A stretch of DNA of 64,000 bases from an uncultured Patescibacteria group bacterium (lineage in GTDB: Bacteria; Patescibacteriota; Microgenomatia; UBA1400; PJMF01): assembly GCA_905478415.1 (NCBI GenBank), contig CAJQIG010000001.1, forward strand, positions 309,892 through 373,891. Reading direction: 5' to 3'. Below the pieces are notes generated by a model that saw nothing but the letters and a program-made list of their open reading frames with translations, ran no database searches and was not told where the DNA came from. The position numbers were made by a program, and so were the translations under genes. This document shows, piece by piece, positions 8,169-61,773 of the stretch. Every line of letters begins with the position of its first letter. Within the stretch, counting starts at the first letter, position 1.

Positions 8169-8969
8169 ATGCACTTTGAAGCTATCACTCCCACCGAACC
8201 ATCTCAGTCCTTCCTTAAGTTTAGGTTTCTACTTGCTCAAGTAACCTGGTTTATTACCGAGAAGGCTACTAGGCTAGAATCACTCTCAAAAGAGAGCTTG
8301 GCTAACCTAGAGCAGGCAAACCAACTCTTAGAAACTCACTCGGGAGTCGTTTATCTCAATCACAGAGAAAAAAAAGATGCGGCACTCGCAATTGGGCTAG
8401 TTCTTAAATACCTCCCCAATGCTCATACCATGTTAGGACCTGCTGGACTGAAACACTTTGATAAAGACCGTGATCGCAGTAGTGCCATGTTATACAAATT
8501 GATTCGATACTTACATGTCTATGCACTACCAGTCTTTCAACATAATGACAAAATGCAAGATCGCTACTCTCCCGAAGAAATTGCCTTTATGAGCACCCAA
8601 CTCAGAGAACTTTCGAGTCTACTTATGGGAAATGCCCACACTATCTATGGTATTACACCAGAAGGTACTAGAAACGAAGATGGAATCTTAACCAAAGCTC
8701 GAACTGGACTAGGAAGACTTGAACAATACCACACCCCATCCGAAACATTTTACCTCCCCGTAGGACTTATCTACCCACCACATGCAGAAAAAAACACTAT
8801 CGAAGTTGGAAAACCCATTCTACTTCCAGATAGTATTGATTTTTCGACTCTGCCGCTACCAAACTCTACAGAAGATGCCCGACATCGAGCTGAGATGATC
8901 ACGGATGAATTGATGCGTTACCTAGCCCAACTACTACCTGAAGAAAGTAGAGGCTACTACGGGACCTAG
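8169..8969 (+). CDS. PlsC-family acyltransferase-like protein
   Basis: NHREKKD (HX4D) and PEGTR motifs. Confidence 0.5.
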   Translation: MHFEAITPTEPSQSFLKFRFLLAQVTWFITEKATRLESLSKESLANLEQANQLLETHSGVVYLNHREKKDAALAIGLVLKYLPNAHTMLGPAGLKHFDKDRDRSSAMLYKLIRYLHVYALPVFQHNDKMQDRYSPEEIAFMSTQLRELSSLLMGNAHTIYGITPEGTRNEDGILTKARTGLGRLEQYHTPSETFYLPVGLIYPPHAEKNTIEVGKPILLPDSIDFSTLPLPNSTEDARHRAEMITDELMRYLAQLLPEESRGYYGT

Positions 8970-9329: not shown

Positions 9330-10013
9330 TCAGTCGACCCGCTGGCGCACTGTTTCAAGTATCGTATTCCTCGTCACCAGAGACCATCCATGAGACTCAG
9401 CCAGCTTTTTTAACTCATCTTGAGCTGGCTCATACAAAAAACCATGTGTGACTGCATCGAGCAAAGCTTCATCTCCAGAAGAATCGCCGAACCCGAATGA
9501 CACACTGTTTTGCTGTCTCTTGAGTAGATGAGCTATCTCTTTTGACTTTGCCGCCTCGTCAAGAATTTTTGTCACTCTCTGAGTATAAACACCATTCTTT
9601 ATTTCTATTGTTGAAGCAAAGCTCTTTACACCTAAATACTTAGCAATATGAGTCACAATTGGTTCAATCGAAGCCGAGACAATATAAACCTCAAACCCGC
9701 TCTTTTTAAGAAAAGAAAAAAGCTCAGAAACATAGGAAAATAGTTTCTGAGTTTGAAAAAATTCCTCTTGCCATTGCTTCACCTCAAGAACAGTGTGTCC
9801 GGCAACAACTTTTCCACTCAGTCGTACTGCTTCTGCAGTAGCTTGACCATAAGTAATCAGTCCTTGGCTATAATCAGCAAGGAGCGCCTCAGCCATAGCC
9901 TTATCTTCTTTTTGAATCAGCCCCCTTGGAATAGCGTATCCAAATAAGAAATCGACCATTGAGTAGCCATCATATAAAGTTTTATCTAAATCAAAAAAAG
10001 CAAGTGTGTTCAT
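9330..10013 (-). CDS. HAD-IB family hydrolase (phosphoserine phosphatase-like); start moved to internal Met
   Basis: MNTLAFFDLDKTL HAD motif I; ATG at 10013..10011 avoids a 5' overlap with the divergent gene. Confidence 0.65.
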   Translation of the reverse strand: MNTLAFFDLDKTLYDGYSMVDFLFGYAIPRGLIQKEDKAMAEALLADYSQGLITYGQATAEAVRLSGKVVAGHTVLEVKQWQEEFFQTQKLFSYVSELFSFLKKSGFEVYIVSASIEPIVTHIAKYLGVKSFASTIEIKNGVYTQRVTKILDEAAKSKEIAHLLKRQQNSVSFGFGDSSGDEALLDAVTHGFLYEPAQDELKKLAESHGWSLVTRNTILETVRQRVD

Positions 10014-25042: not shown

Positions 25043-28000
25043 TCAATCATCTGAGGAATAAACAAGAGCATCAAGGAAGCTCAAGCTTTTAATCTCACGC
25101 ATGACTTCAATAATCAGTTTTTTGAGTTCAGCAACTTCTTCTCTTGAAATAGTAAAGCTACGAGAAACTATTTTGCCTGTTTTTGTTGGCTCAACAAATT
25201 CAAATACTGTTTCAGCCACAGAGTACGGAAAACTGGAGTCAAGTTCGGCGAGCAATACATAAAAAACGAGCTGACGTTTATAGGCACCTCGAATTGATTC
25301 AGGCAATCCCTGCTCTCGTTCTGAGAGAAAACTCAAGCTTGTCTGAGTAGTAGCTTCAATCACATTTGCACTTTTAGCTGTGCCTGTTTTGTAATCAATC
25401 AAACGGACCTTTTTGGTGACTGGGTCTATCAAGTCAATGCGATCTAATCGTCCACTTAAAGGAATTTGGTGTTCTCCATCAAATAAAAGAGTTTTGCTAA
25501 AGGTGCCACCAAAAAATCGTTCTGTAAACAATGGCTTTTTAATTGAAGGGGCATATGTTTCATAATACACAGCTAAAGCCTCTGTGCCTTTTTTAGACCA
25601 ATCTGCATAGTCCTTTTCCAAAAGTACTTCTTTTGCTAAAGCTGTAGTGAAACTAGTTTGCAGGGCACTGAGTGACATCCCTCCATCTGCAGCACTGCTA
25701 TAAAAATCTTCGAGGGCCTTATGCATCGCCGTTCCAAAACTTAAGTGAGCTAGCTTGGCTCTGGGAATTTTAAGTAGCGAGTTATAGATAAACTCTTTGG
25801 GATCTTTTAGGTAGGTGTTTAAAGCAGTTACTGATAAAGTAAAGTCTTCAACCAACGAAGCAAAGAACTCTTTCTCTTGAGCAGTCACATCAACGTTTGC
25901 TGTACTCGGAACTGAGGTGAGAAGGCGAGTTTCAACTGTTTGAGCTAACAACTGGAGTGTTGACTCACTCTCAGTTAGTAAGCTATCACCAATTTCTTCC
26001 AGGAACATACTTCCTACAAAATTTCTAACTACTTTTCCTTCAACCAAAGACTTTGGATAGCTGAGTAAAGTTCCCTTTTTTGCTCGAGTAATGGCTACAT
26101 AAAACAAGCGACGATCTTCTTCATTTTTTTCCAATTTTGAAACATCAACATGAGAAAGAATACCATTAGGAAGTGCTAGTAACTCACGGGAGACAGTATT
26201 GCCCCACTTTTTATCGACTAATCGCATCACAAATACATACTCCCACTCACGCCCTTTGGCTTTGTGAATACTTGAAAGAGTCACCTTGTTTTGAGTCGTC
26301 GCCGGCTGTTGCGTTTTGAAAACCAGCCCATGTTCGGTCATTGTTTGTAAAGCTAACAAAAAATCTGAAAGTCCAAATTGTTTTGAAACTTGCAACCATT
26401 TTTTTATTTCGTTAAAAAGAGTTTGCACGGCTAACAGATGTTCTTTGGCACCTGCTTTTTCAACCAACCAAGAAAATAGTCCCAAACCATTTTCATCGGC
26501 AATAAGTGTCTCAAACCAAGTAGTAAATAAGACGTTTTTTTCTAGAGCAGCTAATGACTCAAGCTTTATTTTAAAAGACTGTAACTGTGTAAAGCCATCA
26601 ACATCAAGTGAAAAATCAGGCGTCAAAGTATCGACATCTCTCTCAAGAACCGTTGCGAAAGTAACTCGTAGTTTACTTGCAATTCGAGCCGTTTGAAACA
26701 CAGCCAACCGTGGCAACTTCAGCCAATCCAGTAAAAAGACTTCAAACAGCAAACCGCTCTCTTCTGTCTCTCCCAGATTCTTAATCACCTGCATAACCTG
26801 TAGTAACTGTTGAATATAGACGTCATCCAAAACATTATTAGAATTATCTGTCTCAAAAGGAATAGCTGCTTCTAAAAGTAGGTCTTGTAGCTCGTAGGCG
26901 TCAGCATGGTTTTTATAGAGCACTGCAATTTCCTGTGGCTCAACCCCACTATCTAGTAAGCGTGAAATCTCTGTAGCTATGTAGTTATTTTCCAGTACCA
27001 CTGTAGCTGCTGGCACCAACTTAAGCTGATCTTGCTGCTTTGATTTTTGCGTTTGGGCTGACTGTAAGCACGTTGTCAGGGCAGTCCTCAGCACCTCGTC
27101 ATGTTCTGGCAAAAATGAGCCTGCTGACGTTTGCAAAGATACGGTATTTTTAACAATGGTCTGGTGAGCAGCGTCATAGAGTTTTTGTGGACACCTATAG
27201 CCTGTTTTGAGTGTGATTACCGTGGCTGTTGGGTATCTTTCAAGAAACCCAAGCATGTTTTCGACAGAAGCTCCTTGAAACCGAAAAATTGACTGATGTG
27301 GGTCACCAACTACAAACAGATTTGCTTGTTCTCCCCACCAACTAGCCAAGTGATCAACAATGGTATTTTGAGCGGTATTGGTATCTTGATACTCATCGAC
27401 CAAAATATATTGAAGTTTTTCTTGATACTCTAATAATAACTCCTCGTGTTCCGAAAAAGCAGTGGTCACAAACGTAATCATGTCGTCAAAGTCATATCGG
27501 TTACGCTGTTGCAGCTGAGCCTGATACTTTACATATAACGTTAACAACTCTTTCTGCTTAGCAAGATTTTTTTCTCGTTTTGTCAGCTGTGTTTTTTTGA
27601 GGTCATTCCGTTCTTGCTCTAAAACTTCCGACTCTACTCTAAGAATTTCCTCAAACTCAGTAGGAGAAACACCCTCACGCTTAAGGTTTGATATTTGAGA
27701 CTGCACTGTTCGCAAGTAGTACAACGGTCTACTTAATGGCTTGAGCACCGTAAGGTTTGAAGAACTCAGTAGCTCTTCAAACAACTCGTATTTTTCTAAA
27801 TCTGAAAGTGGTTGACTAGTGATATCGAGATCAAAGTATTCTGGATGCTCAGTAATAACTTCACTACAAAATGAGTGAAAGGTAGTAATGGCCACATGGT
27901 AGCCAGCTGTACCCATCATCTGTACCAATCGCTCACGCATATTTTTAGCAGCAGCATCAGTAAAGGTCAGTGCCAAAATATTTGAAGGCTCTATGTCCTG

Positions 28001-28159
28001 TTGCTCTAAGATGTGCGCAATGCGGCAAGCTAGTACATGCGTCTTGCCAGTACCAGGACCTGCAATCACCATGACAGGACCTTCGGTGGTAGTCACCGCT
28101 CGTCTCTGCTCTGGATTGAGCATCTGGAACGTCTCTTTAAAAGAGAGTTTGGGCTTCAT
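25043..28159 (-). CDS. UvrD/PcrA-like superfamily 1 helicase with C-terminal PD-(D/E)XK (RecB-like) nuclease domain
   Basis: N-terminal AGPGTGKTH Walker A plus later helicase motifs; C-terminal RLDRIDLID...IDYKTG nuclease motif. Confidence 0.75.
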   Translation of the reverse strand: MKPKLSFKETFQMLNPEQRRAVTTTEGPVMVIAGPGTGKTHVLACRIAHILEQQDIEPSNILALTFTDAAAKNMRERLVQMMGTAGYHVAITTFHSFCSEVITEHPEYFDLDITSQPLSDLEKYELFEELLSSSNLTVLKPLSRPLYYLRTVQSQISNLKREGVSPTEFEEILRVESEVLEQERNDLKKTQLTKREKNLAKQKELLTLYVKYQAQLQQRNRYDFDDMITFVTTAFSEHEELLLEYQEKLQYILVDEYQDTNTAQNTIVDHLASWWGEQANLFVVGDPHQSIFRFQGASVENMLGFLERYPTATVITLKTGYRCPQKLYDAAHQTIVKNTVSLQTSAGSFLPEHDEVLRTALTTCLQSAQTQKSKQQDQLKLVPAATVVLENNYIATEISRLLDSGVEPQEIAVLYKNHADAYELQDLLLEAAIPFETDNSNNVLDDVYIQQLLQVMQVIKNLGETEESGLLFEVFLLDWLKLPRLAVFQTARIASKLRVTFATVLERDVDTLTPDFSLDVDGFTQLQSFKIKLESLAALEKNVLFTTWFETLIADENGLGLFSWLVEKAGAKEHLLAVQTLFNEIKKWLQVSKQFGLSDFLLALQTMTEHGLVFKTQQPATTQNKVTLSSIHKAKGREWEYVFVMRLVDKKWGNTVSRELLALPNGILSHVDVSKLEKNEEDRRLFYVAITRAKKGTLLSYPKSLVEGKVVRNFVGSMFLEEIGDSLLTESESTLQLLAQTVETRLLTSVPSTANVDVTAQEKEFFASLVEDFTLSVTALNTYLKDPKEFIYNSLLKIPRAKLAHLSFGTAMHKALEDFYSSAADGGMSLSALQTSFTTALAKEVLLEKDYADWSKKGTEALAVYYETYAPSIKKPLFTERFFGGTFSKTLLFDGEHQIPLSGRLDRIDLIDPVTKKVRLIDYKTGTAKSANVIEATTQTSLSFLSEREQGLPESIRGAYKRQLVFYVLLAELDSSFPYSVAETVFEFVEPTKTGKIVSRSFTISREEVAELKKLIIEVMREIKSLSFLDALVYSSDD

Positions 28160-29369
28160 CTTTTGGTGTTTCTAAAGAAGCGGTTTCTTCTTCATTTAGT
28201 TTGGATTCGGGTAATTCTAAATGCTGGATTGTAGGGAGTGCACCACCAATAATACCTTGCAAATCTCCGTACAGTGCTGAGGTGCTCATAACCACTGTTT
28301 CAAGTTCTTTTTCGCGCTTATTCCAAATACGTTGGAATGAACGCTTCTCTGTTTCTAAGTCTTGCTTCATATTCATGAACGCCATAACAATGTTTTCAAT
28401 TCTATTTTTGAACTGCGAACCACTCAAGTAACCAAACAGAACTTCCATTTTTTCATCTCGACCAACGAGTGACTGTTTGACTTTTGAAAGCTCAATAATA
28501 TGCATTCTTAGTGCCGAAGCTAGTGGCACCACATGAGTATGACCAACAACCCACACACCATTTTTAAGACCAAAACCTTTGATATCATCAGGAAGTGCTT
28601 GTGAAACTAAAATGGCTACATCAGCTTTGACAATACCTTGATCCCCCTTCAGTTTAGAAATCCATTTTTCGCTAAAGGCTTTGGTGTTTTTTGATTCCCA
28701 CAATATTGTTCCTGCTTTGGCACCAATTTGAGCATTAACGTTTTGAATGAGATCTGCTCCTTTCACGCCTTGAGGAACATCAGTAACCTCATCTTTCATA
28801 AAAGTAGATGAAAGTAGTTCTTTGAGCTGATCTTCCTGGACTTCACCTTGAATCTGCATGGAACCCTGTTCTGCTTTTCGCTTCAGATCATCAATTTGCT
28901 TACGCATAATTTCAAGTTGTTTATCTTTTTCTTGAAGTTTGAGTCCCTGCTGTTCTGCTTCTGATTTTTTTGTTTGTTCGATAATTTTGGCGCGCTCTTC
29001 GTCGATTTTGCGAGTCATCTCTAACTCAATCTTTTTTTCTCTCTCTTCAAGATCTCTGGATTTTTTTCTTAACTCCAACTCTATTTTTTCTGATTCTTCA
29101 AGCTTTTTTGAATTTTCTTTAAGTTGTTCTTGTAGATCTTTTAGCTCTTTGTGTTGTTTTTCAGCAGCCTTCTCTTGGGCAACTTGCCAAAGGCGTTTCT
29201 TTTCTTTGACTGCCTTTTCTTCAAGTTCCGCGCGGAGTTTTTCTTCAAATATAATCTTTTGTTTTTCCAATTGGTGTTTGAGTTTGTGTCCTACTTGCTC
29301 TGAAAGTGCTTTCGTTAACGGAATTTGTGCTCCACAATCGGGGCAAGTAATAGTTTGATCTTCTGGCAT
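28137..29369 (-). CDS. DUF2130-family protein (N-terminal CxxC zinc ribbon, long coiled coil, conserved C-terminal domain)
   Basis: MPEDQTITCPDCGAQIPL ... KE-rich coiled coil; overlaps the helicase start by 23 nt. Confidence 0.6.
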   Translation of the reverse strand: MPEDQTITCPDCGAQIPLTKALSEQVGHKLKHQLEKQKIIFEEKLRAELEEKAVKEKKRLWQVAQEKAAEKQHKELKDLQEQLKENSKKLEESEKIELELRKKSRDLEEREKKIELEMTRKIDEERAKIIEQTKKSEAEQQGLKLQEKDKQLEIMRKQIDDLKRKAEQGSMQIQGEVQEDQLKELLSSTFMKDEVTDVPQGVKGADLIQNVNAQIGAKAGTILWESKNTKAFSEKWISKLKGDQGIVKADVAILVSQALPDDIKGFGLKNGVWVVGHTHVVPLASALRMHIIELSKVKQSLVGRDEKMEVLFGYLSGSQFKNRIENIVMAFMNMKQDLETEKRSFQRIWNKREKELETVVMSTSALYGDLQGIIGGALPTIQHLELPESKLNEEETASLETPKDEAQTLF

Positions 29370-30044: not shown

Positions 30045-30446
30045 ATGAAAGAAAAACACCGCTCCTCTCCAGAAATTAGAATTCTTCTCGCCGAAGATAA
30101 TCATAATTGGCAACAGTTAGTTGATAGAATTGTCACTGAACTGGGAGGAACCCTGGTCCTTACCGTTGATACACTAGAAGAAGCCTTAGCAGCAATAGTT
30201 CTCATGGAAAAACTCCAAATTGACCTAGCCATCTTGGGTGGAAACCTTGGAGCCTTCGAGGAAGGTAACCCAGATGCAGTTGCTATGCTTGAAGCTATGG
30301 CCGTTCATGCTCCAACTGTTAAAACCGTTGGCCTTTCTGGAGACACTATTCCAGGTGCTGATGTTGATCTTGGTAAACAGAATGTTGATCAGTTAGAGAC
30401 AACAATTTTTGAACTGTTTACTGAGCCTGAAACTACCCAAGAATAG
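30045..30446 (+). CDS. stand-alone receiver (CheY-like) domain protein
   Basis: RILLAEDN start typical of REC domain; no output domain. Confidence 0.45.
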   Translation: MKEKHRSSPEIRILLAEDNHNWQQLVDRIVTELGGTLVLTVDTLEEALAAIVLMEKLQIDLAILGGNLGAFEEGNPDAVAMLEAMAVHAPTVKTVGLSGDTIPGADVDLGKQNVDQLETTIFELFTEPETTQE

Positions 30447-31800
30447 TTACTACCAAAAAATATAAAAAGAAACTAAATGCTGACAACATTGTCAACTTTC
30501 TTACTATGCCTGGATGGTACCGCTTTGGAAGCTCTCTTCTATTCAAAAAGTACACAAACCCAAAGGACATCATCATGGCCGCAGCATTAAGAATAGCTGA
30601 AAAAGTAATTAAAACTCTTGGTTCAGTGATACCCCACATATAAATACCGATACCAAGTAAAATCTGCAACCACAACACAATATAAAACCCTTTTGAAACA
30701 TTTACTTTTTGTCCTTTTTTATACGTAAGCAACAACACATTTTCAGAAATAATTCGGGCAGAAGATTCTAATACTCCTAACTGGGTTGAAAAAAGCATCA
30801 AAGCAGCGAGTAATAAGAAGAATATCTTTACCGTTGTCCCCAATGCATCACCAATAACGTTTGCTTCCATATACAAAAAACTGAGCCCTGACTCTACCAC
30901 CCGACCATACACTGTGGCTCTGGCTAGAGCTGAAAGCACAATAATACTCAAAAGTCCCAAGGTCCAAAAAACCATGAAGTGTTCAAGTGTTACCATCTTC
31001 CACCAAGCTTTCCATCGTTTTCTATTGGTGGGTGTATCAGAAAACAGATGCCCTTCAATTGAAATCGGCTGAGCATCCTTTGAAAAAAGTGAGCTAATTT
31101 TGGCTGCATACTTGCCCATTCCAAAACCCTTTTCCTTGACGTAATACGACTGAGCTAAATTTAAATTTCCCCCAGCACCTGCATAAGCAAACGCACCCAG
31201 AAAACTTGCTATCGAAACACCAGACGGGAAAAACCACCAATTTTCACCTCGCCCCATAAGTCCAAGGGCTACTTCTTGCCAATCCGTGCCCTTGGTTAAC
31301 AGTAGGGCAACTATAAATAAAAATGGTAATCCTAATAGGATAACCGTTTTTTGAAATCGTTCCATGGTCGCATAAATTGACTTTCCTGCTGTCAAGATGA
31401 GTCCTGTGATCAAAAGCAAACCAATAGCCACCATCTTTTCTGGCATCCAAGGAATAAATGAACTTAAAATCTCAGAGGCTGCAGATGAAAATCCCGGAAT
31501 TGACCAGGGAATAAAGGTAGAAATGATATACCACAGTGTCACAAGAACACCCATGCGCCGAAATCCCAGAAATACACTCTCACCCCGAGCCAAACTGTAT
31601 CGCATCACCTCGGTATTGAGAACGTATTGAAATGAGATACCAACTAATGCTCCCCACAATAATCCCAAACCATAGTTCGCGGCTAAGTAGGGCCACAAGA
31701 TAAGTTCACCACTGCCTAGTGCTAATCCTAGTAGAATAAATGAAGGGCCAAGTGTCTTGGAAAGAGAAGGTGGAGTACCTAAAGTAAATTTTTTGGGCAT
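30433..31800 (-). CDS. Nramp/MntH-like divalent metal transporter family membrane protein
   Basis: 11-12 TM; N-terminal GPSFILLGLALGSGELILWP resembles Nramp signature. Confidence 0.5.
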   Translation of the reverse strand: MPKKFTLGTPPSLSKTLGPSFILLGLALGSGELILWPYLAANYGLGLLWGALVGISFQYVLNTEVMRYSLARGESVFLGFRRMGVLVTLWYIISTFIPWSIPGFSSAASEILSSFIPWMPEKMVAIGLLLITGLILTAGKSIYATMERFQKTVILLGLPFLFIVALLLTKGTDWQEVALGLMGRGENWWFFPSGVSIASFLGAFAYAGAGGNLNLAQSYYVKEKGFGMGKYAAKISSLFSKDAQPISIEGHLFSDTPTNRKRWKAWWKMVTLEHFMVFWTLGLLSIIVLSALARATVYGRVVESGLSFLYMEANVIGDALGTTVKIFFLLLAALMLFSTQLGVLESSARIISENVLLLTYKKGQKVNVSKGFYIVLWLQILLGIGIYMWGITEPRVLITFSAILNAAAMMMSFGFVYFLNRRELPKRYHPGIVRKLTMLSAFSFFLYFLVVTILG

Positions 31801-32204: not shown

Positions 32205-32927
32205 ATGTCTTCTCTAGTATCTTTCAAAACATATGGTTCAGGTCAAACCACCCTAGTCTGCTTTCCTGGTTGGCTCCATCCACTCGAAAAAGAACCACTC
32301 TTTTTAAAACTTTTGAGCAAAGAATTCACTGTTATCTCGGTACTCTTACCTGGATACATGGGTACTGCCGATGCAGATTCCCTCTCTGACTTTCCTGCTT
32401 TAGCACAAGATATTCATTCGTTTCTAAAAAAAATTCACAGTAAAAAAATTGTTTTAGTGGGGTTTTCTTTAGGCTGCCGACTGATAATGGAACTAGAAAA
32501 ACAGTTCCCCAGTGCTCACCCAAAAATCTTTGTTGGTTGCCCTATTGGTAGCTACCAGATTCCCTTTTGGGCAAAGCCTTTACTTTCGAAATCAAAGATT
32601 GTAAATGTATTGAGAAAAAGCAGTGTAATCAAGAAAAAAATTGTTACAATGGCACTGAGAAAACTCAGCACAAGGAAAGCGATTTTTAGAGATACATCTG
32701 TTTCTCTTACTGGCGCCTTTGACTCTTTAGTTGCCTTACTACTCAGCAAGACTGATGATTCCTTGTTTACTCAGAATGCTCTCTTTATTTATGGGGAAAA
32801 TGATGCTTACACTCAGCTTGCAAAAGTGCTTTCGCCAAAAAATATCATCTTTATTAAAAATGCAGAACACAACTGCGTTAGATCTAATGAAAAAAGAGTT
32901 ATAAAACACATGAGAGAATTTATTTAG
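32205..32927 (+). CDS. alpha/beta hydrolase
   Basis: GFSLG nucleophile elbow. Confidence 0.55.
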   Translation: MSSLVSFKTYGSGQTTLVCFPGWLHPLEKEPLFLKLLSKEFTVISVLLPGYMGTADADSLSDFPALAQDIHSFLKKIHSKKIVLVGFSLGCRLIMELEKQFPSAHPKIFVGCPIGSYQIPFWAKPLLSKSKIVNVLRKSSVIKKKIVTMALRKLSTRKAIFRDTSVSLTGAFDSLVALLLSKTDDSLFTQNALFIYGENDAYTQLAKVLSPKNIIFIKNAEHNCVRSNEKRVIKHMREFI

Positions 32928-32948
32928 TAAAAAAGTTAGGAGTTACAA

Positions 32949-33326
32949 ATGATACAACAAGAACAAAAAAGAAGAATGCCAACACAAGCTGAAGCAAATC
33001 AGCGTCACGGGCATGTCTACATTACTCGTTTGATGAACACAGAGGACTTACAAACAATAGAAGCAGACTTTGGCCAAATTGCATTAGCTTTCAGAAGAAT
33101 TAAAGCTGAAGAAATTGGTTCAAGCTTTCATCCAGGATTAATTGAAACGAGGTACTTAGCTTTGGCTGGCAGTTTTGTTCCTAAGTATCTTGATAAACTG
33201 GTACAAGGAAATGCAACCGGTGACGATGCCACATCAATTAGATCAGCAATTGAATCTGTCGAACTTGGAGAAGTTGAGTATCCAGTTACGGTTACAACTT
33301 TGAAAAAGTTGTTCGTTGGTTTGTAA
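32949..33326 (+). CDS. hypothetical protein
   Basis: ORF with RBS aggag. Confidence 0.4.
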   Translation: MIQQEQKRRMPTQAEANQRHGHVYITRLMNTEDLQTIEADFGQIALAFRRIKAEEIGSSFHPGLIETRYLALAGSFVPKYLDKLVQGNATGDDATSIRSAIESVELGEVEYPVTVTTLKKLFVGL

Positions 33327-33343
33327 AGAAATACTGTAAAATT

Positions 33344-33368
33344 GAATGTGCTTGGAACTTATTTTGTA
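33344..33368. repeat. degenerate copy of array repeat (gaatgtgcttggaacttattttgta)
   Basis: Shares tgttggaact core; gene stop TAA (33359-33361) lies inside. Confidence 0.4.
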
Positions 33369-33841
33369 TAGTATTCTCTATTTCTCTTAGCCTCATTAGT
33401 ACTCCAAGCCATGGCTTTCTGTGCATCATCTTGACTTTGCAATGGAATACTTTCCACCCATTTTAAATCTTCTGGCAATAAATGATCAAAATCTTTACCT
33501 GGCAAAATGGTATAAAAATCTCCTGGTATTTCTTCTGGGGGAAAACCCGTATTAATTAAAATCTTTAACCCAGCAGCAGAATCAGTGACGCTCGTCATTG
33601 AAATATTAGTTATCGAAACTGCACTATGACCAGTAATTTGCACTAGCCTTATCTGGTATTTAGAAAGATCAACTTTTTCAATAAGCATTTTTGCTATTTT
33701 AACTGCTTTTCTATGGCAAATATCATTATGTAAATTTTCATTTCCCAGTGCTTCTAGAATTACTGCTTTCAACTCTGTTTCTAGTTGCACTAATTCCTGC
33801 TTTGAAAAAGGGGTTTTGTCAAAACCTGATATTTCTGTCAT
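33359..33841 (-). CDS. hypothetical cargo protein 6 of repeat-delimited array
   Basis: ORF; stop overlaps degenerate repeat copy. Confidence 0.5.
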   Translation of the reverse strand: MTEISGFDKTPFSKQELVQLETELKAVILEALGNENLHNDICHRKAVKIAKMLIEKVDLSKYQIRLVQITGHSAVSITNISMTSVTDSAAGLKILINTGFPPEEIPGDFYTILPGKDFDHLLPEDLKWVESIPLQSQDDAQKAMAWSTNEAKRNREYYTK

Positions 33842-33897
33842 AAAACAAATTCTACTATTTTTATAAAAAAATATCGAACACAGATGTACAGTATCGA

Positions 33898-33927
33898 GAA
33901 TTTAGGGTGTTATTGGAACTACTCTAA
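33898..33927. repeat. array repeat copy A (gaatttagggtgttattggaactactctaa)
   Basis: About 80% identical to copies B and C over the ggaactactctaa core. Confidence 0.65.
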
Positions 33928-34379
33928 ACTGATAATGACGATTTAGTGGTATGTTTATTCCTTCTAAATCCGGTTTCTTGATCTATAATTACTGATTCTC
34001 CGTCAAGATGAATAAGTTCTATTTTATTTTTTTTAGTTGTAAGGAAATGTAAAAAATAGTGATTCGACATTTCAATAAATAATTCTAAAGAATCTTTAAA
34101 TAGTTTGGTCGACTCAACACTCATTCCAATTAACTGGTTAAAAAACAAGATAATATCTTCTGAATCATAACTGTCATCAATTTTAGTTCTTCCCGAATCT
34201 AGAACTTCCCAATTCTTACCAATATATAAAATAAGATTACCAGTTTTTTGATTCTGTTTTGAACCAAAATAAAGTGCTAACTCATTGAAAAAGACCTCAA
34301 CATGTAATAGTTCTAAATTCTCTAAATTATAAAATTCTTCTTCGATATCTAAAAATGATTCTTGTGTCATGTTATTCAA
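33924..34379 (-). CDS. hypothetical cargo protein 5 (151 aa)
   Basis: ORF; stop TAG supplied by repeat copy A. Confidence 0.5.
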   Translation of the reverse strand: MNNMTQESFLDIEEEFYNLENLELLHVEVFFNELALYFGSKQNQKTGNLILYIGKNWEVLDSGRTKIDDSYDSEDIILFFNQLIGMSVESTKLFKDSLELFIEMSNHYFLHFLTTKKNKIELIHLDGESVIIDQETGFRRNKHTTKSSLSV

Positions 34380-34430
34380 CTATACATTAAAAAATAGATA
34401 CTCATAAATACTTTATTCAAGATTTTTTTC

Positions 34431-34449
34431 ATATTAATTACTCTAAAAA
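34431..34449. repeat. degenerate array repeat copy E (ttaattactctaaaaag)
   Basis: Matches tactctaa...aaaag of copy B. Confidence 0.35.
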
Positions 34450-35456
34450 GTATTTTCGTACCACTTAAGTGCTCTAATGAGACCTTGATTACAATATTCC
34501 TGTCTGACAACCTCTTCGACATCTTTTTCAGATTTCATCCACCCTTTTAGGGGATCTATCATAGATTTTAAAATATCTTTAGCTTCCTCAATAGAAAATT
34601 TATTTTTTTCACACTCATTTTTAGAAAGACTTATCAGTTCTTCTAGCGGAACTGTCTCAAGTCTAATTCTGTCTGTAGAAGATCTTCTTATACCCCAAGG
34701 AGAAAAGAGTAAAATGCTTTTATTCGATAGTTCGGTACTCAGCACCTCATATAAAACTTTTGCCTGAATAAACGATACAGGACTTTTTCTTTCCCTCGCT
34801 TGTTTTATGGCATGAGTTGTAAAATTTCTGTGCTCTGTACGAAAGTAATCAAGGTCAAAGATCGCAACTTTATAAGGACCATGTTCTTCACCGTTAGTAA
34901 TCTCTTCTAACCAAGAAGTGCCCTTTGTTACCAAATTATAGTTTTGATATGTTTTATTTTCATCTAAAATAAGTTGATAAAAAAACGTGTCTTCAGAAGT
35001 CAGATCTTCTTGTGCTTCTAAAATTGAACCATCATCAAAATATATTTTTAGTACTTTTGATTCTTCACTTACTTCTAAGTTCTTGATTATAAGGGTAGTA
35101 TCTACCAATGTTACTAGTTCATCAGCTACCGCAAGCATATGATACTGTTCATCAATAAACTCATTCTTGAAAACGGAAATTTCTCTACCTTTAGCGTTTT
35201 TCCAACTCCATGTATCTGTTCCAATTGATAAGTGATAGTTAGCTTCATGTTTTTTTGAATATATTGAGATAAATAGTTGCTTTGTGTCTGAAGAACTATT
35301 TTGAATAGTTACTATTCTCAAGCCACTCAAATGATTATTTAACCTGGTTTGTGCCTCTTTGTAAGACAGTTTGTTTGTTTGGTAAAAATTACTCATGTAT
35401 TTATTATACAGTAAGTGTGTGAGGAAGAAGATTTGCAGATTTTCTGTCTTACTCAC
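34443..35456 (-). CDS. hypothetical cargo protein 4 (337 aa)
   Basis: ORF; stop TAG inside degenerate repeat attactctaa. Confidence 0.5.
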   Translation of the reverse strand: MSKTENLQIFFLTHLLYNKYMSNFYQTNKLSYKEAQTRLNNHLSGLRIVTIQNSSSDTKQLFISIYSKKHEANYHLSIGTDTWSWKNAKGREISVFKNEFIDEQYHMLAVADELVTLVDTTLIIKNLEVSEESKVLKIYFDDGSILEAQEDLTSEDTFFYQLILDENKTYQNYNLVTKGTSWLEEITNGEEHGPYKVAIFDLDYFRTEHRNFTTHAIKQARERKSPVSFIQAKVLYEVLSTELSNKSILLFSPWGIRRSSTDRIRLETVPLEELISLSKNECEKNKFSIEEAKDILKSMIDPLKGWMKSEKDVEEVVRQEYCNQGLIRALKWYENTF

Positions 35457-35496
35457 ATAGAATTAAATTTTGTTTAACTTTTTGTAAGAAGCAGAC

Positions 35497-35817
35497 TTAG
35501 GATCGAAAGTGGCCTTGACCACGATAGATCTCAATATCTACTCGTACATATCCCAGATTTGTTGCAAATTCCTTACGATAAAATGCTCGGTTCTGCCCGG
35601 CACTTGCGCCACCTACAGCCCCATCAATGGCTCGTTTTGCGGCATCGATTGCATTACGAAAATCTTGACGATTTCGCAATGAACTATAATAACGGCACGA
35701 TTCCTCGTAAACCTCTTCCAACAATTGCTTGCCTTCTGAGCGTGAACAAGAACCACCGTTATAACTTCGGCTGGCAATATTCTCGCTGCGTACTTGAACT
35801 TGGAATGCTACACTCAT
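35497..35817 (-). CDS. hypothetical cargo protein 3 (106 aa; Gly/Ala/Arg-rich, two CxxC-like pairs)
   Basis: ORF; the antisense track ORF 35559..35819 is judged spurious. Confidence 0.45.
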   Translation of the reverse strand: MSVAFQVQVRSENIASRSYNGGSCSRSEGKQLLEEVYEESCRYYSSLRNRQDFRNAIDAAKRAIDGAVGGASAGQNRAFYRKEFATNLGYVRVDIEIYRGQGHFRS

Positions 35818-36000: not shown

Positions 36001-36040
36001 TCGATGTCGGGGGTTTAGAACGATGTTGGAACTACTCTAA
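36001..36040. repeat. array repeat copy B (tcgatgtcgggggtttagaacgatgttggaactactctaa)
   Basis: Read directly; contains internal direct repeat gatgtYgg and terminal inverted repeat ttaga/tctaa. Confidence 0.7.
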
Positions 36041-36355
36041 GTAAAAAGCGGGGTTAACACATCTGACGCTTGAAAAAACGGTTGACTCTACTACTCCATC
36101 AGAAGTTCCTATTAAATTTGTGCCAACAGTACCAGTACGATTAGAGAATACTCGAACATTATCTGGCAATGATGTAACCATCTCATCAAATTTAGACTTC
36201 GGAATCTCACTCAATATCCTGATTCCTATTTTGTCTGGCTTGTCAATTCTCTCATAAAGGTAATTCCCAAAAGGAGAAGCATCTATAATTACTTTTAACT
36301 CATGATATCGAGCTTCTGTTTCATGCAAGTCTATCTCTTCCATACTGCCTTTCAA
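36032..36355 (-). CDS. hypothetical cargo protein 2 (107 aa)
   Basis: ORF; RBS gaaagg; last codons YLE* encoded by repeat copy B. Confidence 0.5.
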   Translation of the reverse strand: MKGSMEEIDLHETEARYHELKVIIDASPFGNYLYERIDKPDKIGIRILSEIPKSKFDEMVTSLPDNVRVFSNRTGTVGTNLIGTSDGVVESTVFSSVRCVNPAFYLE

Positions 36356-36432
36356 TTCTAAAAAGTTATTAATCTTTGAGACAACTCAAATATAACATAT
36401 CAGCATAAAAAAATATCGCCATTTTTTTCTAT

Positions 36433-36470
36433 GCGTCGGGTGTTTGGGACGATGTTGGAACTTTAGTTAA
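36433..36470. repeat. array repeat copy C (gcgtcgggtgtttgggacgatgttggaactttagttaa)
   Basis: 27/29 match to copy B over tcggg..ggacgatgttggaact. Confidence 0.7.
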
Positions 36471-36475
36471 AGAAA

Positions 36476-36904
36476 CTATTCAGTAATAACAGGTGGCCTC
36501 GATACATAGTTTGTATGCCTCCACCAATCAGGAATAAACTTTAAAAAGAGTGTTTTGTCACTTTCATATGATTTAGATTGGGGAAACTTCTTGTAGTGTA
36601 TTGCCGTAATCTTTTCAATCTCTGAGCTGGTTTCAACTAGATAGATTGTTCCACTCAACTGCAGTGTCTGCTTGAGTTCTTCAGTTGTTCCAATAACGAG
36701 CGAAGCATGACACTGTTTAGCATCTGTAAGTTTTTCAACTTTTTTTGTACTACTTTCTGTAAAGAAATATATTTCAAGTGGATCTGGATTACAAGAATAC
36801 AACATGGCAGCTGCATGAACCTTTTCCAAAGGTAATGATGTTGCCAAAACGCTTACGCGTTGTCGTAACAAAAAACTTAATACTTCTTTCGGCAGTGTTT
36901 TCAT
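36476..36904 (-). CDS. pyridoxamine 5'-phosphate oxidase-like (FMN-binding split barrel) family protein
   Basis: N-terminal EVLSFLLRQRVSVLAT...LYSCNPD... pattern typical of the PNPOx-like family. Confidence 0.45.
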   Translation of the reverse strand: MKTLPKEVLSFLLRQRVSVLATSLPLEKVHAAAMLYSCNPDPLEIYFFTESSTKKVEKLTDAKQCHASLVIGTTEELKQTLQLSGTIYLVETSSEIEKITAIHYKKFPQSKSYESDKTLFLKFIPDWWRHTNYVSRPPVITE

Positions 36905-36907
36905 ATC

Positions 36908-37297
36908 TCAAATCACTTTCACAGCTTTTGCATTACGCATCTTTGCATCTGCATACTCAAAAAGCACACCCTGTTTTGACGTAGAATTATTTCTAACAGC
37001 ATGTGAGAGGTTTGGTGGAATTTCAAAAAGTAGAACGGTATCCCCTGACTGCATAGTAACTTCATGTGTAACATCCTCTGCATCTACCCAAAATAAAGAT
37101 AAATCATCCATTGTCACAAACCACTCAGTCCGAGGGTGCGTATGATTACCTCCATAACTGCCAGGAGCTAAAAGAATAATCTGCTGATCTTTAATAAGGT
37201 TTTTCTCAATTGGAAGATCATCTGTGTTTAATACCCAGACCTTTGGATCTTGTTTTTGGTATGAATAATTAAGTTTGGTTATCTTGGGTTCTAACAT
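36908..37297 (-). CDS. cupin domain protein; start moved to internal Met to avoid tRNA overlap
   Basis: GGNHTHPRTEWFV cupin motif 1 and GDTVLLFEIPPNLSHAV motif 2; the track ORF extends over the tRNA gene. Confidence 0.55.
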   Translation of the reverse strand: MLEPKITKLNYSYQKQDPKVWVLNTDDLPIEKNLIKDQQIILLAPGSYGGNHTHPRTEWFVTMDDLSLFWVDAEDVTHEVTMQSGDTVLLFEIPPNLSHAVRNNSTSKQGVLFEYADAKMRNAKAVKVI

Positions 37298-37347
37298 AGA
37301 GCTATCATAGCAGATCACAGGTATTTGCAGAGAATAAAATCGAGGTG

Positions 37348-37421
37348 TCGGGTTGACTGGACTCGAACCAGCGACCTCACGCACCCCATGCGCGCACTCT
37401 AGCCATCTGAGCTACAACCCG
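37348..37421 (-). tRNA. tRNA-Pro (anticodon GGG)
   Basis: Manual cloverleaf: acceptor CGGGTTG/CAACCCG, D-arm GCTC..GAGT, anticodon stem CGCGC/GCGTG, loop AUGGGGU (T33, GGG, G37), T-arm GCTGG-TTCGAGT-CCAGT, discriminator A; 74 nt, CCA not encoded. Confidence 0.8.
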
Positions 37422-37585: not shown

Positions 37586-38644
37586 ATGGCTAGAACAAAG
37601 AAGACTGACACACCAACAAAAGATGGTAAATCAGTTGAACAAAACGCTAAATTACAAGCCGTTAACATTGCAATGCAACAAATTGAAAAAGAGTTTGGCA
37701 AAGGCTCAGTCATGAAAATGGGTGACTCACTCAAAAACATGACCATCATCCCAGCCGTCTCAACTGGCTCCCTCTCGCTCAATCTGGCGTTAGGTGTTGG
37801 TGGCTTTCCAAAAGGAAGAATCGTTGAAATTTACGGACCAGAGGCATCAGGTAAAACCACTATTTGTCTGCACGCTATCGCTGCAACTCAAAAACAAGGT
37901 GGAGTAGCTGCCTTTATTGACGTTGAACATGCTCTTGATCCAACCAGAGCTGAAAAAATCGGTGTTAACCTCGATGATATGATCATTTCTCAACCAGATT
38001 ACGGTGAACAGGCCCTCGAAATTGCCGAAACGCTTATCCGATCGGGTGGTGTGGACATTGTAGTTATCGATTCAGTTGCAGCCTTAGTCCCTAAGTCAGA
38101 AATTGAAGGCGAGATGGGCGATCACCAAATGGGTACTCAAGCACGACTCATGTCTCAAGCAATGAGAAAACTGACTGCAGCTATCAGTAAAACAAAAACC
38201 CTGGTTATCTTCACCAACCAGATTCGACACAAAATTGGAGTCATGTTTGGAAGTCCAGAAACAACTACTGGTGGTAATGCCCTCAAGTTTTATGCTTCGC
38301 AAAGACTCGATATTAGAAAAATTGGCAACATCCAAGAAGGTGATCAGATTGTTGGTAGCAGACACAGAGTCAAAGTTAAGAAAAATAAATTAGCTCCACC
38401 ATTTAGAGTAGCTGAGTTTGATATGGACGAGAATGGTGTTTCTATGACTGGAGACGTGGTCGACATTGGAGTCAGTGAAGGTGTCATAGAAAAGGCAGGT
38501 AGTTTCTATAAATACGATGGTAATGTGCTGGCACAAGGACGAGAGGCCACTAAGAAACATTTTGATGCAAATCCTGATTTCATGAAGAAAATTCAAAAGG
38601 AAATCTGGGCTAAAATCAAAGAAAAGAACCAAATTTCAGATTAA
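37586..38644 (+). CDS. recA: recombinase RecA
   Basis: GPEASGKTT Walker A, full-length conservation, AGGAG RBS. Confidence 0.95.
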
Positions 38645-58711: not shown

Positions 58712-60055
58712 GTGGCCTGTGGTATGCCAAAAAACATAAAAAACATACTGGCAAAATATGACACTACGGAAACGTTGTTAATCATATCTTTATATCCCCA
58801 CAAGGGTGAGACCTACTCATCTGGGACCACTGGGGTGGCTTCTTATACCAAGAATGTAGTTAAAAATATGAACCGCAACACGGTTGTTATTGCTGACTAC
58901 AAAAAACAAAGCAGTCACTATGTCGAAAAAGACACATTAGTACTCAGACACTTCAAACATGGCAAAATGTCTATGTGGACTGAGTTACTCCAAAGTGTAA
59001 CTCAATTTAAGAATGCAAAAAATGTACTTATTCAGTTTGATTTCTCTATGTATGGAAGTATGCTGGTATCAGCAACACTACTTCCATTCTTAGCTGTTCT
59101 TAAGTCACTAGGATATAAGACTCACGTTGTTTCTCATCATGTAGTCATGGATGTTGGAAAACTTTCTGGACACATGGGACTGACGAACTCATTCCGCGAC
59201 TCAATCAAGACTCGTGCATTTAACGTAGCCTTTCACTCGTTCTATAGAGCGCTTGGCTTAGTTAGTAACTCTGTTATTGTTCTTGAAGATATCCTCAAAG
59301 AGAGACTGTCTAAATATATTCCTGCTAAAAAAATAATTGCTATTCCTCATGCTGTCGACACTAATTTAGAAAAAATTTCTAAAGCAGAGGCGCGTAAAAA
59401 ACTTGGAATTGCTGCTTCTGAAAAAGTGGTGCTCTTCTTCGGTTTTGTAAACTGGTTTAAAGGTGCAGATATCTTTGCAAAAAACTTTGCAAAGACTCAG
59501 AAGCTTCTTGGAAAAAAAGCTCGCTTTATTATTGCTGGAGGTGAAAGTATTACCTTATCTTCAAAAGAATACTATAAAGAATTTTATAATGGCGTTGTAA
59601 ATACAACCCAAAATTCTTCTTCTGTAGATATCACTGGATATGTTCCTCAAGAAAAAATTGTTGAATACTTCTCTGCTGCGGATTTAATTGTCTTTCCGTA
59701 CAGAGAGTTTATGTGTGCTTCTGGAGTACTATCATTAGCTTTCTCATATAAAAAACCATTTATTGTTTCTGACAAATTAGAACCAATGTTAACTGCACCT
59801 GATTTCTCAGAAGCTATGAAAGACTTTGGCCTAACTACTAGCGATTTATCGTTCGAACTTTCAAAAGAATCAATGCTTAAACAAACAACAAAAGTCTTAA
59901 GAAATGGTCTAAAACGTAAAATGTCACTCATGGGAGCTCAAATTAGAAAACAACGTAGTTTTCAAAATACGGCTAAGACCTATGAACGAGCTATATTTGC
60001 ACCAAGTTCAAAGCTTCATAAATCGCCTAGAGTCAGGTATGCTTATGGTGCATGA
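58712..60055 (+). CDS. glycosyltransferase family 1 (GT-B; GT4-like)
   Basis: C-terminal pattern GGE...FPYREFMCASG resembling the EX7E region. Confidence 0.55.
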   Translation: MACGMPKNIKNILAKYDTTETLLIISLYPHKGETYSSGTTGVASYTKNVVKNMNRNTVVIADYKKQSSHYVEKDTLVLRHFKHGKMSMWTELLQSVTQFKNAKNVLIQFDFSMYGSMLVSATLLPFLAVLKSLGYKTHVVSHHVVMDVGKLSGHMGLTNSFRDSIKTRAFNVAFHSFYRALGLVSNSVIVLEDILKERLSKYIPAKKIIAIPHAVDTNLEKISKAEARKKLGIAASEKVVLFFGFVNWFKGADIFAKNFAKTQKLLGKKARFIIAGGESITLSSKEYYKEFYNGVVNTTQNSSSVDITGYVPQEKIVEYFSAADLIVFPYREFMCASGVLSLAFSYKKPFIVSDKLEPMLTAPDFSEAMKDFGLTTSDLSFELSKESMLKQTTKVLRNGLKRKMSLMGAQIRKQRSFQNTAKTYERAIFAPSSKLHKSPRVRYAYGA

Positions 60056-61773
60056 AAAAAATAGCACCCTGGTTACTTTTAGCTGCTCTTAGCATCTTTC
60101 TTTGTTACTATTTTTTATTTAGAGCTCAAGTACAGCTTGGAGGTGATATCGTAGAGTATTACGGTATTACTGAATCAGTAAAAAATCACTTTAGTTTTGA
60201 ACTTACAGTAGAAGATAGAACTAATCTGGAACAAGTACTGCATAAAGCTTACTTTGAAGATCCTGGCTATTACATATCAGGCACTGATCAAAAACGCTAT
60301 CCTGTTCACTTTATCTTTTACTCACTGCTTGCACTACCATTCCGGCTACTTCTTGAGGCACTTAATCTCAATCCACTCCGATCACTTTGGTTACTAAATA
60401 TTTTTTCATACCTTACTATGATTGGGATTATCTGGGCTAAATATATTCATAAGAGTGGCCATCGTATCGCCTTTTTACTTCTTACATTTATATCTCCGCT
60501 TATGTCCTTTTTTATATGGCCTGGACCAGATCTCTTTGTCATTACGTTACTCACTGTCTCCTTGTTTGCCTTTGCTAAAAAAGAATATCTTTTTGCAATA
60601 CTTTTGAGCACAGTTGCCTCATGGCACAGTCAACCAGTACTGATTGTGACATTCTTCTTTCTCCTCTCCTATGTTGTCATTGGCCATACTCAACAAAAAA
60701 AGTTTGCAATTACTACTAAGATCTTAGCTACTGCTTTTGGTGTTGGCTTACTATCACTAATTCCCTACCTTTATAACTACCTTGCATTTGGTGTTTTAAC
60801 ACCGTGGACACTTCTTCAAGATGGATGGACTACAGTACGTGGTTTCGGATTACACAACGCTTCGGTACAAAAATTTTACGAACAATTTTTTGACCTTAAT
60901 ATTGGTATTTTTTGGTATTCTCCAATACTTTTTATAGCTTCACTGTTTTATTTTATGAGGAATCATACAAAAAACACACTGCTCAATTACTTTTATCTAG
61001 CTATTTTTTGTCTCACACTACTCTTTTATCAAACAAATCCTGGCTGGCATTATGGAACATCTGGTTTCGGTCCTGGTCGGCATTCAATTATTGTTTTAGC
61101 GTTACTTTTTTTCATTACCACTCAACTTATAGCTTCACAAACTAAAAAATTTACGATTGGATTTATTGCGTTTCTGCTAGTGATTCAAGGAAGTATTTTG
61201 TCTAAAAATAATTTTCTCGAGCCAAAACTAGAGAATACTCTCCATAATAGTTTTTTTGCTTCTTTCATTCTCGATTCTCTGCCAGAACTCTATAACCCTA
61301 CCCCTGAGATTTTTGTTGATAGAACAAACCATACAGATAATACTCAACTAGAGTCAGCCTATTATATGAAAGATGGAATCTGCAAAAAAGCCTTTGTACT
61401 GTACTCAGACCTCCCCTTCTTAAAAGAACACTGTCCTAATAATGCAAAACTCTCTGCCACACTCATGTTCGAAGACCCATTTAAAAGAAGCGCTAGCTAT
61501 CCAAGAACTATCATTTTAGACGAAGCCACTTTCTGGCCTGAACCAAGAGCTTGTGACAATAACTTTAAGCATCAATATTTTGTTTGTCCAAAAACAACAG
61601 ATGATTTTATGTCCGAGACGGGAATATCAGACGAACTTAGAATCACCACACTTGCTGAGTTTCCATCTCCTGGCATATGGAAACTCAGCAAAGGAGCCCC
61701 AATTAAAGTTACTGTTCCTCCCGGATACATTTTAGACTACACTGCAACAGATGGTATCTATGTCAACTTTTAA
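60052..61773 (+). CDS. polytopic membrane protein, GT-C-like (possible arabinofuranosyl/mannosyl-transferase)
   Basis: More than 10 TM; 4-nt overlap with preceding gene. Confidence 0.4.
   Translation: MKKIAPWLLLAALSIFLCYYFLFRAQVQLGGDIVEYYGITESVKNHFSFELTVEDRTNLEQVLHKAYFEDPGYYISGTDQKRYPVHFIFYSLLALPFRLLLEALNLNPLRSLWLLNIFSYLTMIGIIWAKYIHKSGHRIAFLLLTFISPLMSFFIWPGPDLFVITLLTVSLFAFAKKEYLFAILLSTVASWHSQPVLIVTFFFLLSYVVIGHTQQKKFAITTKILATAFGVGLLSLIPYLYNYLAFGVLTPWTLLQDGWTTVRGFGLHNASVQKFYEQFFDLNIGIFWYSPILFIASLFYFMRNHTKNTLLNYFYLAIFCLTLLFYQTNPGWHYGTSGFGPGRHSIIVLALLFFITTQLIASQTKKFTIGFIAFLLVIQGSILSKNNFLEPKLENTLHNSFFASFILDSLPELYNPTPEIFVDRTNHTDNTQLESAYYMKDGICKKAFVLYSDLPFLKEHCPNNAKLSATLMFEDPFKRSASYPRTIILDEATFWPEPRACDNNFKHQYFVCPKTTDDFMSETGISDELRITTLAEFPSPGIWKLSKGAPIKVTVPPGYILDYTATDGIYVNF

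Follow-up and report, generated by a model that had tools for sequence, protein, structure and literature searches.

Downstream of the only tRNA gene in a stretch of 64,000 nt from an uncultured Patescibacteria group bacterium (contig CAJQIG010000001.1; this whole stretch is hereafter called the window) lies an array of small genes set off by direct copies of a 28-nt element, here named T, whose main type T1 reads GTTCCAACATCGTCCCAAACACCCGACA and whose variant T2 reads GTTCTAATTTGGTACAACGTTGTCGACA. The tRNA gene is tRNA-Pro(GGG), which ends, in tRNA sense, in ...GGTTCGAGTCCAGTCAACCCGACA and is followed by the trailer CCTCGATTTTATT. In the same sense, the features run tRNA, cupin, PNPOx, T(C), o107, T(B), o106, o337, o151, T(A), o160 and a possible last copy Z, beyond which come o125 and a hydrolase gene, an Nramp gene, a small receiver-like open reading frame (ORF), o85, DUF2130 and a UvrD-type helicase-nuclease (Table 1). 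Copies of T in the window all lie on the tRNA-Pro strand, at copy-to-copy spacings of 429, 2113, and 561 nt that contain ORFs, and every one starts at the stop codon of the upstream ORF or at most 14 nt past it. The cassette ORFs beyond PNPOx are orphans without exception in Pfam and PHROG searches, and the GC content at 32–36 kb is 0.32–0.36 as compared to ∼0.40 elsewhere, with cassette 3 the lowest of the region (0.32).

Copies B and C form a genuine repeat, identical at 25 of 28 positions, a similarity matched in 0 of 100 shuffles; copy A is 68% identical and shares with copy B the preceding TTAGAGTA. A preliminary description of this DNA, made without database searches, had quoted three strings for the tRNA end and copies B and C, all of which are present as given; the range 36433–37372 in which it placed the repeat does hold copy C, while copy B lies outside it. 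No further copy of the element occurs elsewhere in the window, and a 1.19-Mb contig gave a single match to a strict pattern; T is thus a locus-specific element. Read in tRNA sense, copies C and A are each closely followed by an identical 14-mer, ATAAAAAAATATCG (plus strand; 36405–36418 and 33863–33876), which at copy C forms part of an A/T-rich hairpin.

Four further species with the same locus were recovered by a metagenome pattern scan together with context look-ups. The ∼20 copies in the seven genomes compared are all in the orientation of the tRNA and the cupin-PNPOx pair, even where they stand beside reversed genes (L091 and L113). L093, L105, L111, and L113 carry one and the same T1 28-mer, which copy C of the window matches at 27 of 28 positions. 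Mean pairwise identity is 0.99 within the element, as compared to 0.33–0.34 in the 45 nt on each side and to 0.39–0.52, which is saturation, at third codon positions of recA and Nramp. With such conservation set in unrelated contexts and against saturated neutral sites, the element is conserved like the tRNA itself. In L094 and L106, which form a sister clade, T2, also of 28 nt, comes after the stop codons of PNPOx and NUDIX, and two decayed T2 copies are present in L091; more distant relatives (L010–L028) have no T copies. T1 contains internal direct sub-repeats (GTTCCAAC and GTCCCAAAC) with a 12-nt period. Degenerate or shortened extra copies occur at L091 2747–2774, L111 ∼7887–7915, and L113 ∼8693–8710, the last being a short form, GTTCCAAACTCCCGACA, that equals T1 minus one 11-nt internal sub-repeat. 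The L091 extra copy is T1-like in its left 20 nt (19/20) and T2-like in its right 8 nt (7/8), in a genome that holds both types.

Table 1. Features of the tRNA-Pro array and its flanks, in window coordinates
Feature	Position	Strand	Basis or remark
recA	37586–38644	plus	Pfam; conserved proximal flank, divergent from tRNA-Pro
tRNA-Pro(GGG)	37347–37421	minus	ARAGORN; Rfam tRNA, 55 bits at 37348–37421; proximal anchor of the array
Terminal block ACCCGACA of tRNA-Pro	37346–37353	minus	Acceptor-stem end, A73, then CA
Cassette 1	36476–37300	minus	Cupin 36908–37300 (Pfam Cupin_2) and PNPOx-like 36476–36904 (Pfam PNPOx_N)
Copy C (T1), GTTCCAACATCGTCCCAAACACCCGACG	36434–36461	minus	Begins 14 nt past the PNPOx stop codon
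Cassette 2	36032–36355	minus	Lone orphan ORF o107 (103–107 aa), without Pfam or PHROG match
Copy B (T1), GTTCCAACATCGTTCTAAACCCCCGACA	36005–36032	minus	Overlaps the o107 stop codon
Cassette 3	33924–35817	minus	Orphans o106 35497–35817, o337 34443–35456, o151 33924–34379
Copy A (diverged T1), GTTCCAATAACACCCTAAATTCTCGATA	33892–33919	minus	nhmmer E=0.08
Cassette 4	33359–33841	minus	Orphan ORF o160
Possible copy Z, badly decayed, GTTCCAAGCACATTCAATTTTACAGTAT	33331–33358	minus	Directly past the o160 stop; nhmmer E=7, doubtful
Distal variable part	32205–33326	plus	o125 32949–33326 and alpha/beta hydrolase 32205–32927 (Pfam Abhydrolase_6)
Nramp-family transporter	30433–31800	minus	Conserved distal flank; name from sources' labels on homologues

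The genes between the tRNA and the distal flank change from species to species. The window RecA is 77–83% identical to those of metagenome-assembled genomes labelled Patescibacteria, Paceibacterota, or Pacebacteria, and recA is syntenic with tRNA-Pro(GGG) in about 10 relatives, in which what follows the tRNA differs everywhere. The window and four further species share the frame recA, tRNA-Pro(GGG), ..., Nramp, DUF2130, UvrD, with a tRNA-Pro gene that is identical to that of the window in L091/L093 and L111 and one base off in L113, and with Nramp orthologues in the same place (71–74% amino acid identity in L093, L111, and L113; 70% nucleotide identity in L105). Their gene content from tRNA to Nramp is nevertheless different in all five: the order is X302(rev), o72(rev), two membrane proteins, cupin, PNPOx, NUDIX, and o261 in L091/L093; o112, o177(rev), the o107 homologue, o371, hydrolase(rev), and o272 in L105; o416, o139, hydrolase(rev), and o255 in L111; and o189(rev), HIT(rev), nucleotidyl-transferase(rev), o209, and o95 in L113. 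Some units recur within this mosaic. The cupin-PNPOx pair is also found in L093, L094, and L106, in L093 at 3.3 kb from the tRNA and after a T2-like copy; the o107 homologue of L105 is 72% identical and likewise has T1 on both sides and other neighbours; and hydrolase homologues (47–53% amino acid identity) take the same distal position in L105 and L111, the window gene and o125 being transcribed toward the array, that is, convergently. Cassette 3 had no homologue in the variable regions that were compared from the other species.

Homology between species begins and ends at or close to the edges of T and of the tRNA. L094 and L106 are 88% identical from the cupin gene to the last base of their first T2 copy (positions 866/904), past which they hold unrelated NUDIX genes (E=0.03), and realign ∼10 nt before their second T2 copy. 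The window and L105 have exactly T1-o107-T1 (36464..36007) in common, with differing neighbours, and their homology stops at the right edge of copy B, while the cupin-PNPOx homology of the window and L093 stops 7 nt before T(C). In L093, 3.3 kb are inserted exactly past the ...CCCGACA of the tRNA and are bounded distally by the T2-like copy, which lies 15 nt before the conserved cupin leader, the very position that the tRNA end holds in the window. The tRNA trailers of the window, L091, and L111 differ directly past ACA, and conservation between species stops right past the tRNA block ACCCGACA; an extended CATAG similarity of tRNA trailers and T flanks across species was dismissed as insignificant given the number of comparisons. 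With an intact tRNA at the border, content that varies among relatives and breakpoints at the tRNA 3' end, these comparisons support the view that genes are gained and replaced with particular frequency directly downstream of tRNA-Pro, a hotspot with the repeats at its joints. The accretion at tRNA-Pro proposed in the preliminary description is thereby supported.

The frame may itself be variable. In L010, the closest RecA relative (83%), recA abuts o85-DUF2130-UvrD (9540–10010), with no tRNA-Pro, cassette array, Nramp, or receiver-like ORF; the tRNA itself therefore seems to be part of the variable block. The closest Nramp homologue (85% amino acid identity; L109 10001–11368, also in L110) stands in an unrelated context (PNPase ... 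PIG-L), and the distal frame gene may therefore itself have moved.

The preliminary description had read the array repeat as degenerate direct copies of the tRNA-Pro 3' end and trailer, the mark of attL/attR sites left by tRNA-targeting integrases. Part of the resemblance is real. One 8-mer forms the terminal edge of both the canonical T1 and the tRNA, and in each it is followed by unrelated sequence; only 0.4% of 28-mers have any 8-mer in common with the tRNA end, and ∼1.7% of 28-nt windows have some 7-mer in common with it. GTTC and the terminal heptamer are the only solid blocks common to element and tRNA, and AACCCGACA is not an exact substring of copy B, which has CCCGACA, or of copy C, which has ACCCGAC. 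The similarity as a whole does not hold up. When local alignment is scored strictly, comparison with dinucleotide shuffles yields p=0.11 for copy B and p=0.21 for copy C, neither of them significant. Permissive scoring makes the likeness marginal, with ranks among all 37-mers of the window of 0.4–1.6% (B) and 3–8% (C), and a semi-global test that forces the whole 24-nt tRNA end into the alignment gives 4–33% for the two copies. A 14-member nhmmer family profile found every copy of the element and no tRNA-Pro 3' end at E≤50 in ∼1.4 Mb. From GTTC to ACA the element spans 28 nt and the tRNA 23 nt, a joint alignment needing a 5-nt indel; collinearity of the element with a tRNA, whichever it be, is therefore excluded. 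Nowhere else in the window are the last 18 nt of the tRNA matched within 3 mismatches, nor is there a second match at ≥16/24. As for the trailer match (TCGA...TTTT) claimed for both copies, it exists in copy B only, the flank being unrelated past ...GACA in copy C and in all copies from other species. An element that is 5 nt too long and 99% conserved where neutral sites are saturated does not fit the attL/attR reading: the array repeat is a distinct 28-nt element, and the idea that it is what remains of a decayed tRNA 3' end is not supported.

True copies of the tRNA end do exist in relatives. L014 has an exact 19-nt copy of the 3' end of its own tRNA-Pro(GGG) 54 nt downstream of it (5556–5574 versus 5629–5647), and L015 has an exact 18-nt copy 114 nt downstream (9513–9530 versus 9645–9662); both are att scars of the classical kind, with hardly any island remaining between copy and gene. 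L105 has two tRNA-end copies, AAGTCCAGTCAACTCGACA and GAAGTCCAGTCAACCCGAG, one of them 145 nt from a perfect T1. These scars start at T-loop position 57/58 and are 90–100% identical to the tRNA, and so integrases with a T-loop crossover do target tRNA-Pro in this clade, a type of att site known for example from phage Ms6 at tRNA-Ala (PMC1762012). The 18–19-nt block from T-loop to 3' end that characterizes such tyrosine-integrase sites is thus present in L014, L015, and L105 and has no copy in the window. Directly 5' of partial tRNA-Pro 3' copies we also observed a conserved motif of ∼35–50 nt, CGAAGCNCG(N)TGG...CTANTCCNCGAANNGGG (L105 1–55 and 1137–1187; L015 9459–9494), which forms a hairpin with a GNRA-like loop and in L105 falls within a ∼125-nt insertion relative to the window. 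It has no Rfam match and is absent from the window, and could represent a small RNA or else one terminus of an integrative element.

Several familiar identities for T were considered and rejected. Neither dyad symmetry nor a stable or shared fold was found for it, as RNA or DNA, on either strand, and there is no Rfam family for it. An integron attC site is excluded by the lack of an imperfect palindrome, fold, Rfam match, or intI, the head of the array adjoining recA; a Xer/dif site by the arms GTTCCAACATC and AACACCCGACA, which on inspection are not inverted repeats of each other; and a CRISPR (clustered regularly interspaced short palindromic repeats) array by the spacings, which hold ORFs rather than spacers of ∼30–40 nt. 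An intrinsic terminator or a repetitive extragenic palindromic (REP)-type repeat would not be expected to be unstructured and without other copies in 64 kb. A terminator or rut site would fit T1, which is C-rich and unstructured, better than T2, which is not C-rich, and the orientation of T ignores gene direction. Coding on the opposite strand yields only micro-ORFs, in a reading frame that varies between copies; cumulative GC skew keeps falling through the locus, contrary to a replication terminus; and two scans of viral contigs for a phage origin gave only chance matches inside coding DNA.

Several known systems resemble the locus. In Alteromonas, additive flexible genomic islands are anchored at tRNA genes, tRNA-Pro among them (PMC4898812), and tycheposon islands of Prochlorococcus grow by tandem accretion, also anchored at tRNA genes (10.1101/2020.12.28.424599). 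As in those islands, there is a hotspot directly 3' of a tRNA, with cassettes that vary between close relatives, tandem stacking, and direct separators, and one tRNA-adjacent site has five contents in five species. The separators of those islands, however, are true partial tRNA copies, whereas the 28-nt separator of the present array is an element of its own, with only GTTC and the last 8 nt in common with the tRNA, and is perfectly conserved rather than decaying; the elements of those islands or their remnants carry integrases, of which neither a gene nor a fragment was found here; and the unit here can be as small as a single 100-aa ORF (429 bp). With integrons and clusters of attC sites lacking integron integrases (CALINs) the locus shares an array that runs in one direction and holds small orphan ORFs, mostly promoter-proximal, with a recombination-site-like repeat at the end of each cassette and a single orientation for all sites, as well as repeats that are homogeneous within a lineage (T1 versus the T2 clade; compare the species-specific Vibrio cholerae repeats, VCRs), mosaic cassette content between species, and a fixed primary site at the array head. 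Integron attC sites are structured and 57–141 nt long; T, in contrast, has 28 nt and no R''/L''/L'/R' palindrome, intI and attI are missing, the head is a tRNA 3' end, and some cassettes here have several or reversed genes. The sites of Xer-exploiting integrative mobile elements (IMEX) and pdif modules are similar in measuring 28 nt and in bounding small gene modules, but T shows neither 11-6-11 inverted arms nor similarity to dif arms, and on inspection its copies are direct rather than alternating. The locus therefore functionally resembles an additive flexible island beside a tRNA, with an architecture like that of an integron or CALIN, but lacks what defines either: the partial-tRNA separators and integrase of the one, the attC structure and IntI of the other. 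A literature search found no account of an element of this kind from Patescibacteria.

We put the probability that T serves as junction site in a cassette array anchored at the tRNA at roughly 0.5. T would then mark the 3' boundary of each gene cassette, a cassette being a gene body with its own T, and the tRNA-Pro(GGG) 3' end would be the anchor of the array. Cassettes would enter or be swapped by recombination at the ...(A)CCCGACA end that the tRNA and any resident T have in common, perhaps with the crossover at or near CGACA, giving the order tRNA / body-T / body-T / ... in which T is regenerated at each joint and all copies are direct; the tRNA end would take the role of attI and T that of attC. 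T would be a recombination site, acted on perhaps by a recombinase encoded elsewhere in the genome. Such a cassette array accounts for the fixed orientation, the breakpoints exact to the edge, the mosaic content, and the common 8-mer, and recombinase specificity or concerted exchange would account for the perfect conservation of T. A more far-reaching version, which we consider possible rather than probable, is that this is an integron-like cassette system, previously undescribed, in Patescibacteria, in which a lineage-specific, unstructured 28-nt site (T1/T2) closing each cassette recombines with the tRNA-Pro(GGG) 3' end and with further T sites under a recombinase that is located elsewhere in these ∼1-Mb genomes and is possibly of an unrecognized type.

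Several results weigh against this junction-site reading. Precomputed Pfam annotation gives no integrase, transposase, or other recombinase in the window at ∼5.6–64 kb, none adjoins the array in any relative compared, no integrase lies within ∼30 kb on either side of the array, and Pfam, PHROG, and PDB sequence searches found no recombinase among the cassette ORFs and no detectable homology for X302, the gene adjacent to the tRNA in L091. Since T lacks a dyad and a fold, it is unlike the known core sites of tyrosine and serine recombinases as well as attC. Homologous recombination between conserved copies of T would also place breakpoints at its edges. Contigs of the same species from several samples are collinear and 99.9–100% identical, without population polymorphism, so that no ongoing mobility is visible among them. 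The T1/T2 chimera of L091, when taken as a recombinant site and evidence of crossover, is not significant (p ∼0.1), and the sample is small, seven genomes of which several are represented by short contigs. Exchange could be site-specific, or it could equally be driven by homology with T as a short arm; were it homology-driven, T would need to be conserved for some other reason.

Just such a reason is offered by an alternative in which T binds a protein or punctuates transcripts (as an insulator, a terminator-associated motif, a polar barrier, or an operator with 11–12-bp direct sub-repeats) and has no part in recombination, the turnover of genes being due to homologous recombination after DNA uptake, for which the conserved T copies, the tRNA, and Nramp are mere homology anchors. 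All 28 positions of T are kept, and conservation this strict is commoner in sequences under tight recognition than in most recombination sites; the 12-nt-period sub-repeats and the L113 form with one unit less would suit an operator; hairpins followed by T-runs often lie just downstream of T; no recombinase lies nearby, while recA, DUF2130, and a UvrD/PD-(D/E)XK helicase-nuclease flank the locus; and exchange driven by homology would explain the breakpoints at the T edges just as well. We nonetheless regard it as doubtful. The orientation of T is tied to the tRNA and the chromosome rather than to neighbouring genes (L091 and L113), contrary to a role as promoter, 3' untranslated region, or terminator; confinement to one locus argues against a general regulatory or punctuation motif; and T2 differs from T1 in base composition, so a C-rich, rut-like role is not general. 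Moreover, 28 nt is at the lower limit for RecA-dependent exchange.

The literal form of the earlier model, in which successive integrase insertions left the repeats as degenerate tRNA-Pro 3' copies, has precedents in the tycheposon and Alteromonas islands cited above and real counterparts in the scars at tRNA-Pro of L014, L015, and L105. It draws further on the GTTC and CCCGACA held in common with the tRNA in the same order and orientation, on the T2 of L094, which as the best member of the family is in the top 0.03–1.4% of background windows against the tRNA end, and on the T2-like copy of L091, which takes the place of the tRNA end relative to the cupin leader. We judge it quite unlikely, and largely refuted by the expectation that scars should decay, when T1 is 99% conserved amid random flanks. 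The other obstacles are the insignificance of the window copies against the tRNA, with a family profile that misses tRNA-Pro; a length of 28 rather than 23 nt, no tRNA having 26 nt from G53 to A73; a true scar in L105 that coexists with T1 at 145 nt and looks different; and a window with neither an integrase nor a copy of the last 18 nt of the tRNA. The window alone has only two to three good copies and contigs of the same species are identical, which would fit a functionless local duplication of a 3' flank in this genome that resembles the tRNA by chance; the identical 28-mer in four other species, with unrelated flanks, refutes this and makes it extremely improbable.

In Patescibacteria, with tiny genomes and few recognizable mobile elements, the route by which accessory genes are acquired is poorly understood. 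A locus that swaps its entire gene content between species at a junction kept letter-perfect is a concrete and testable candidate for a gene-capture mechanism, and the 28-nt element probably shows the points at which genes enter and leave. Should T prove to be a recombination site, its asymmetry and want of structure imply a mode of recognition unlike those of attC, lox/dif, and classical att cores, and if the integron-like version is true, these streamlined epibionts would have a dedicated gene-capture locus. T1 or T2 beside tRNA-Pro also provides a simple search key for flexible gene pools in metagenomes.

A few minor observations can be added. Genes of recombination and repair frame the array, recA on one side and DUF2130 with the UvrD/PD-(D/E)XK helicase-nuclease on the other (25043–29369), which may be coincidence. 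Upstream of the tRNA-Pro gene of L028, by 17 nt, there is an exact 27-nt duplicate of its 5' part (9808–9834 and 9852–9878), which may reflect duplication of part of the gene or else an error in the assembly. L021, one of the more distant relatives, has an inverted pair of the 38-nt GACTTAAAGCGGGTTCGAATTTTTTTGTAAAGCTCGAC, at 8579–8604 (+) and 1420–1445 (−), ∼7 kb apart, which may be the ends of a transposable element. A second low-GC stretch of the window (0.33–0.37), at 60001–64000, extends over very large ORFs (573 aa); the ORFs that follow the 573-aa one, seen in L096, encode a 1111-aa product and an LTD-domain protein.

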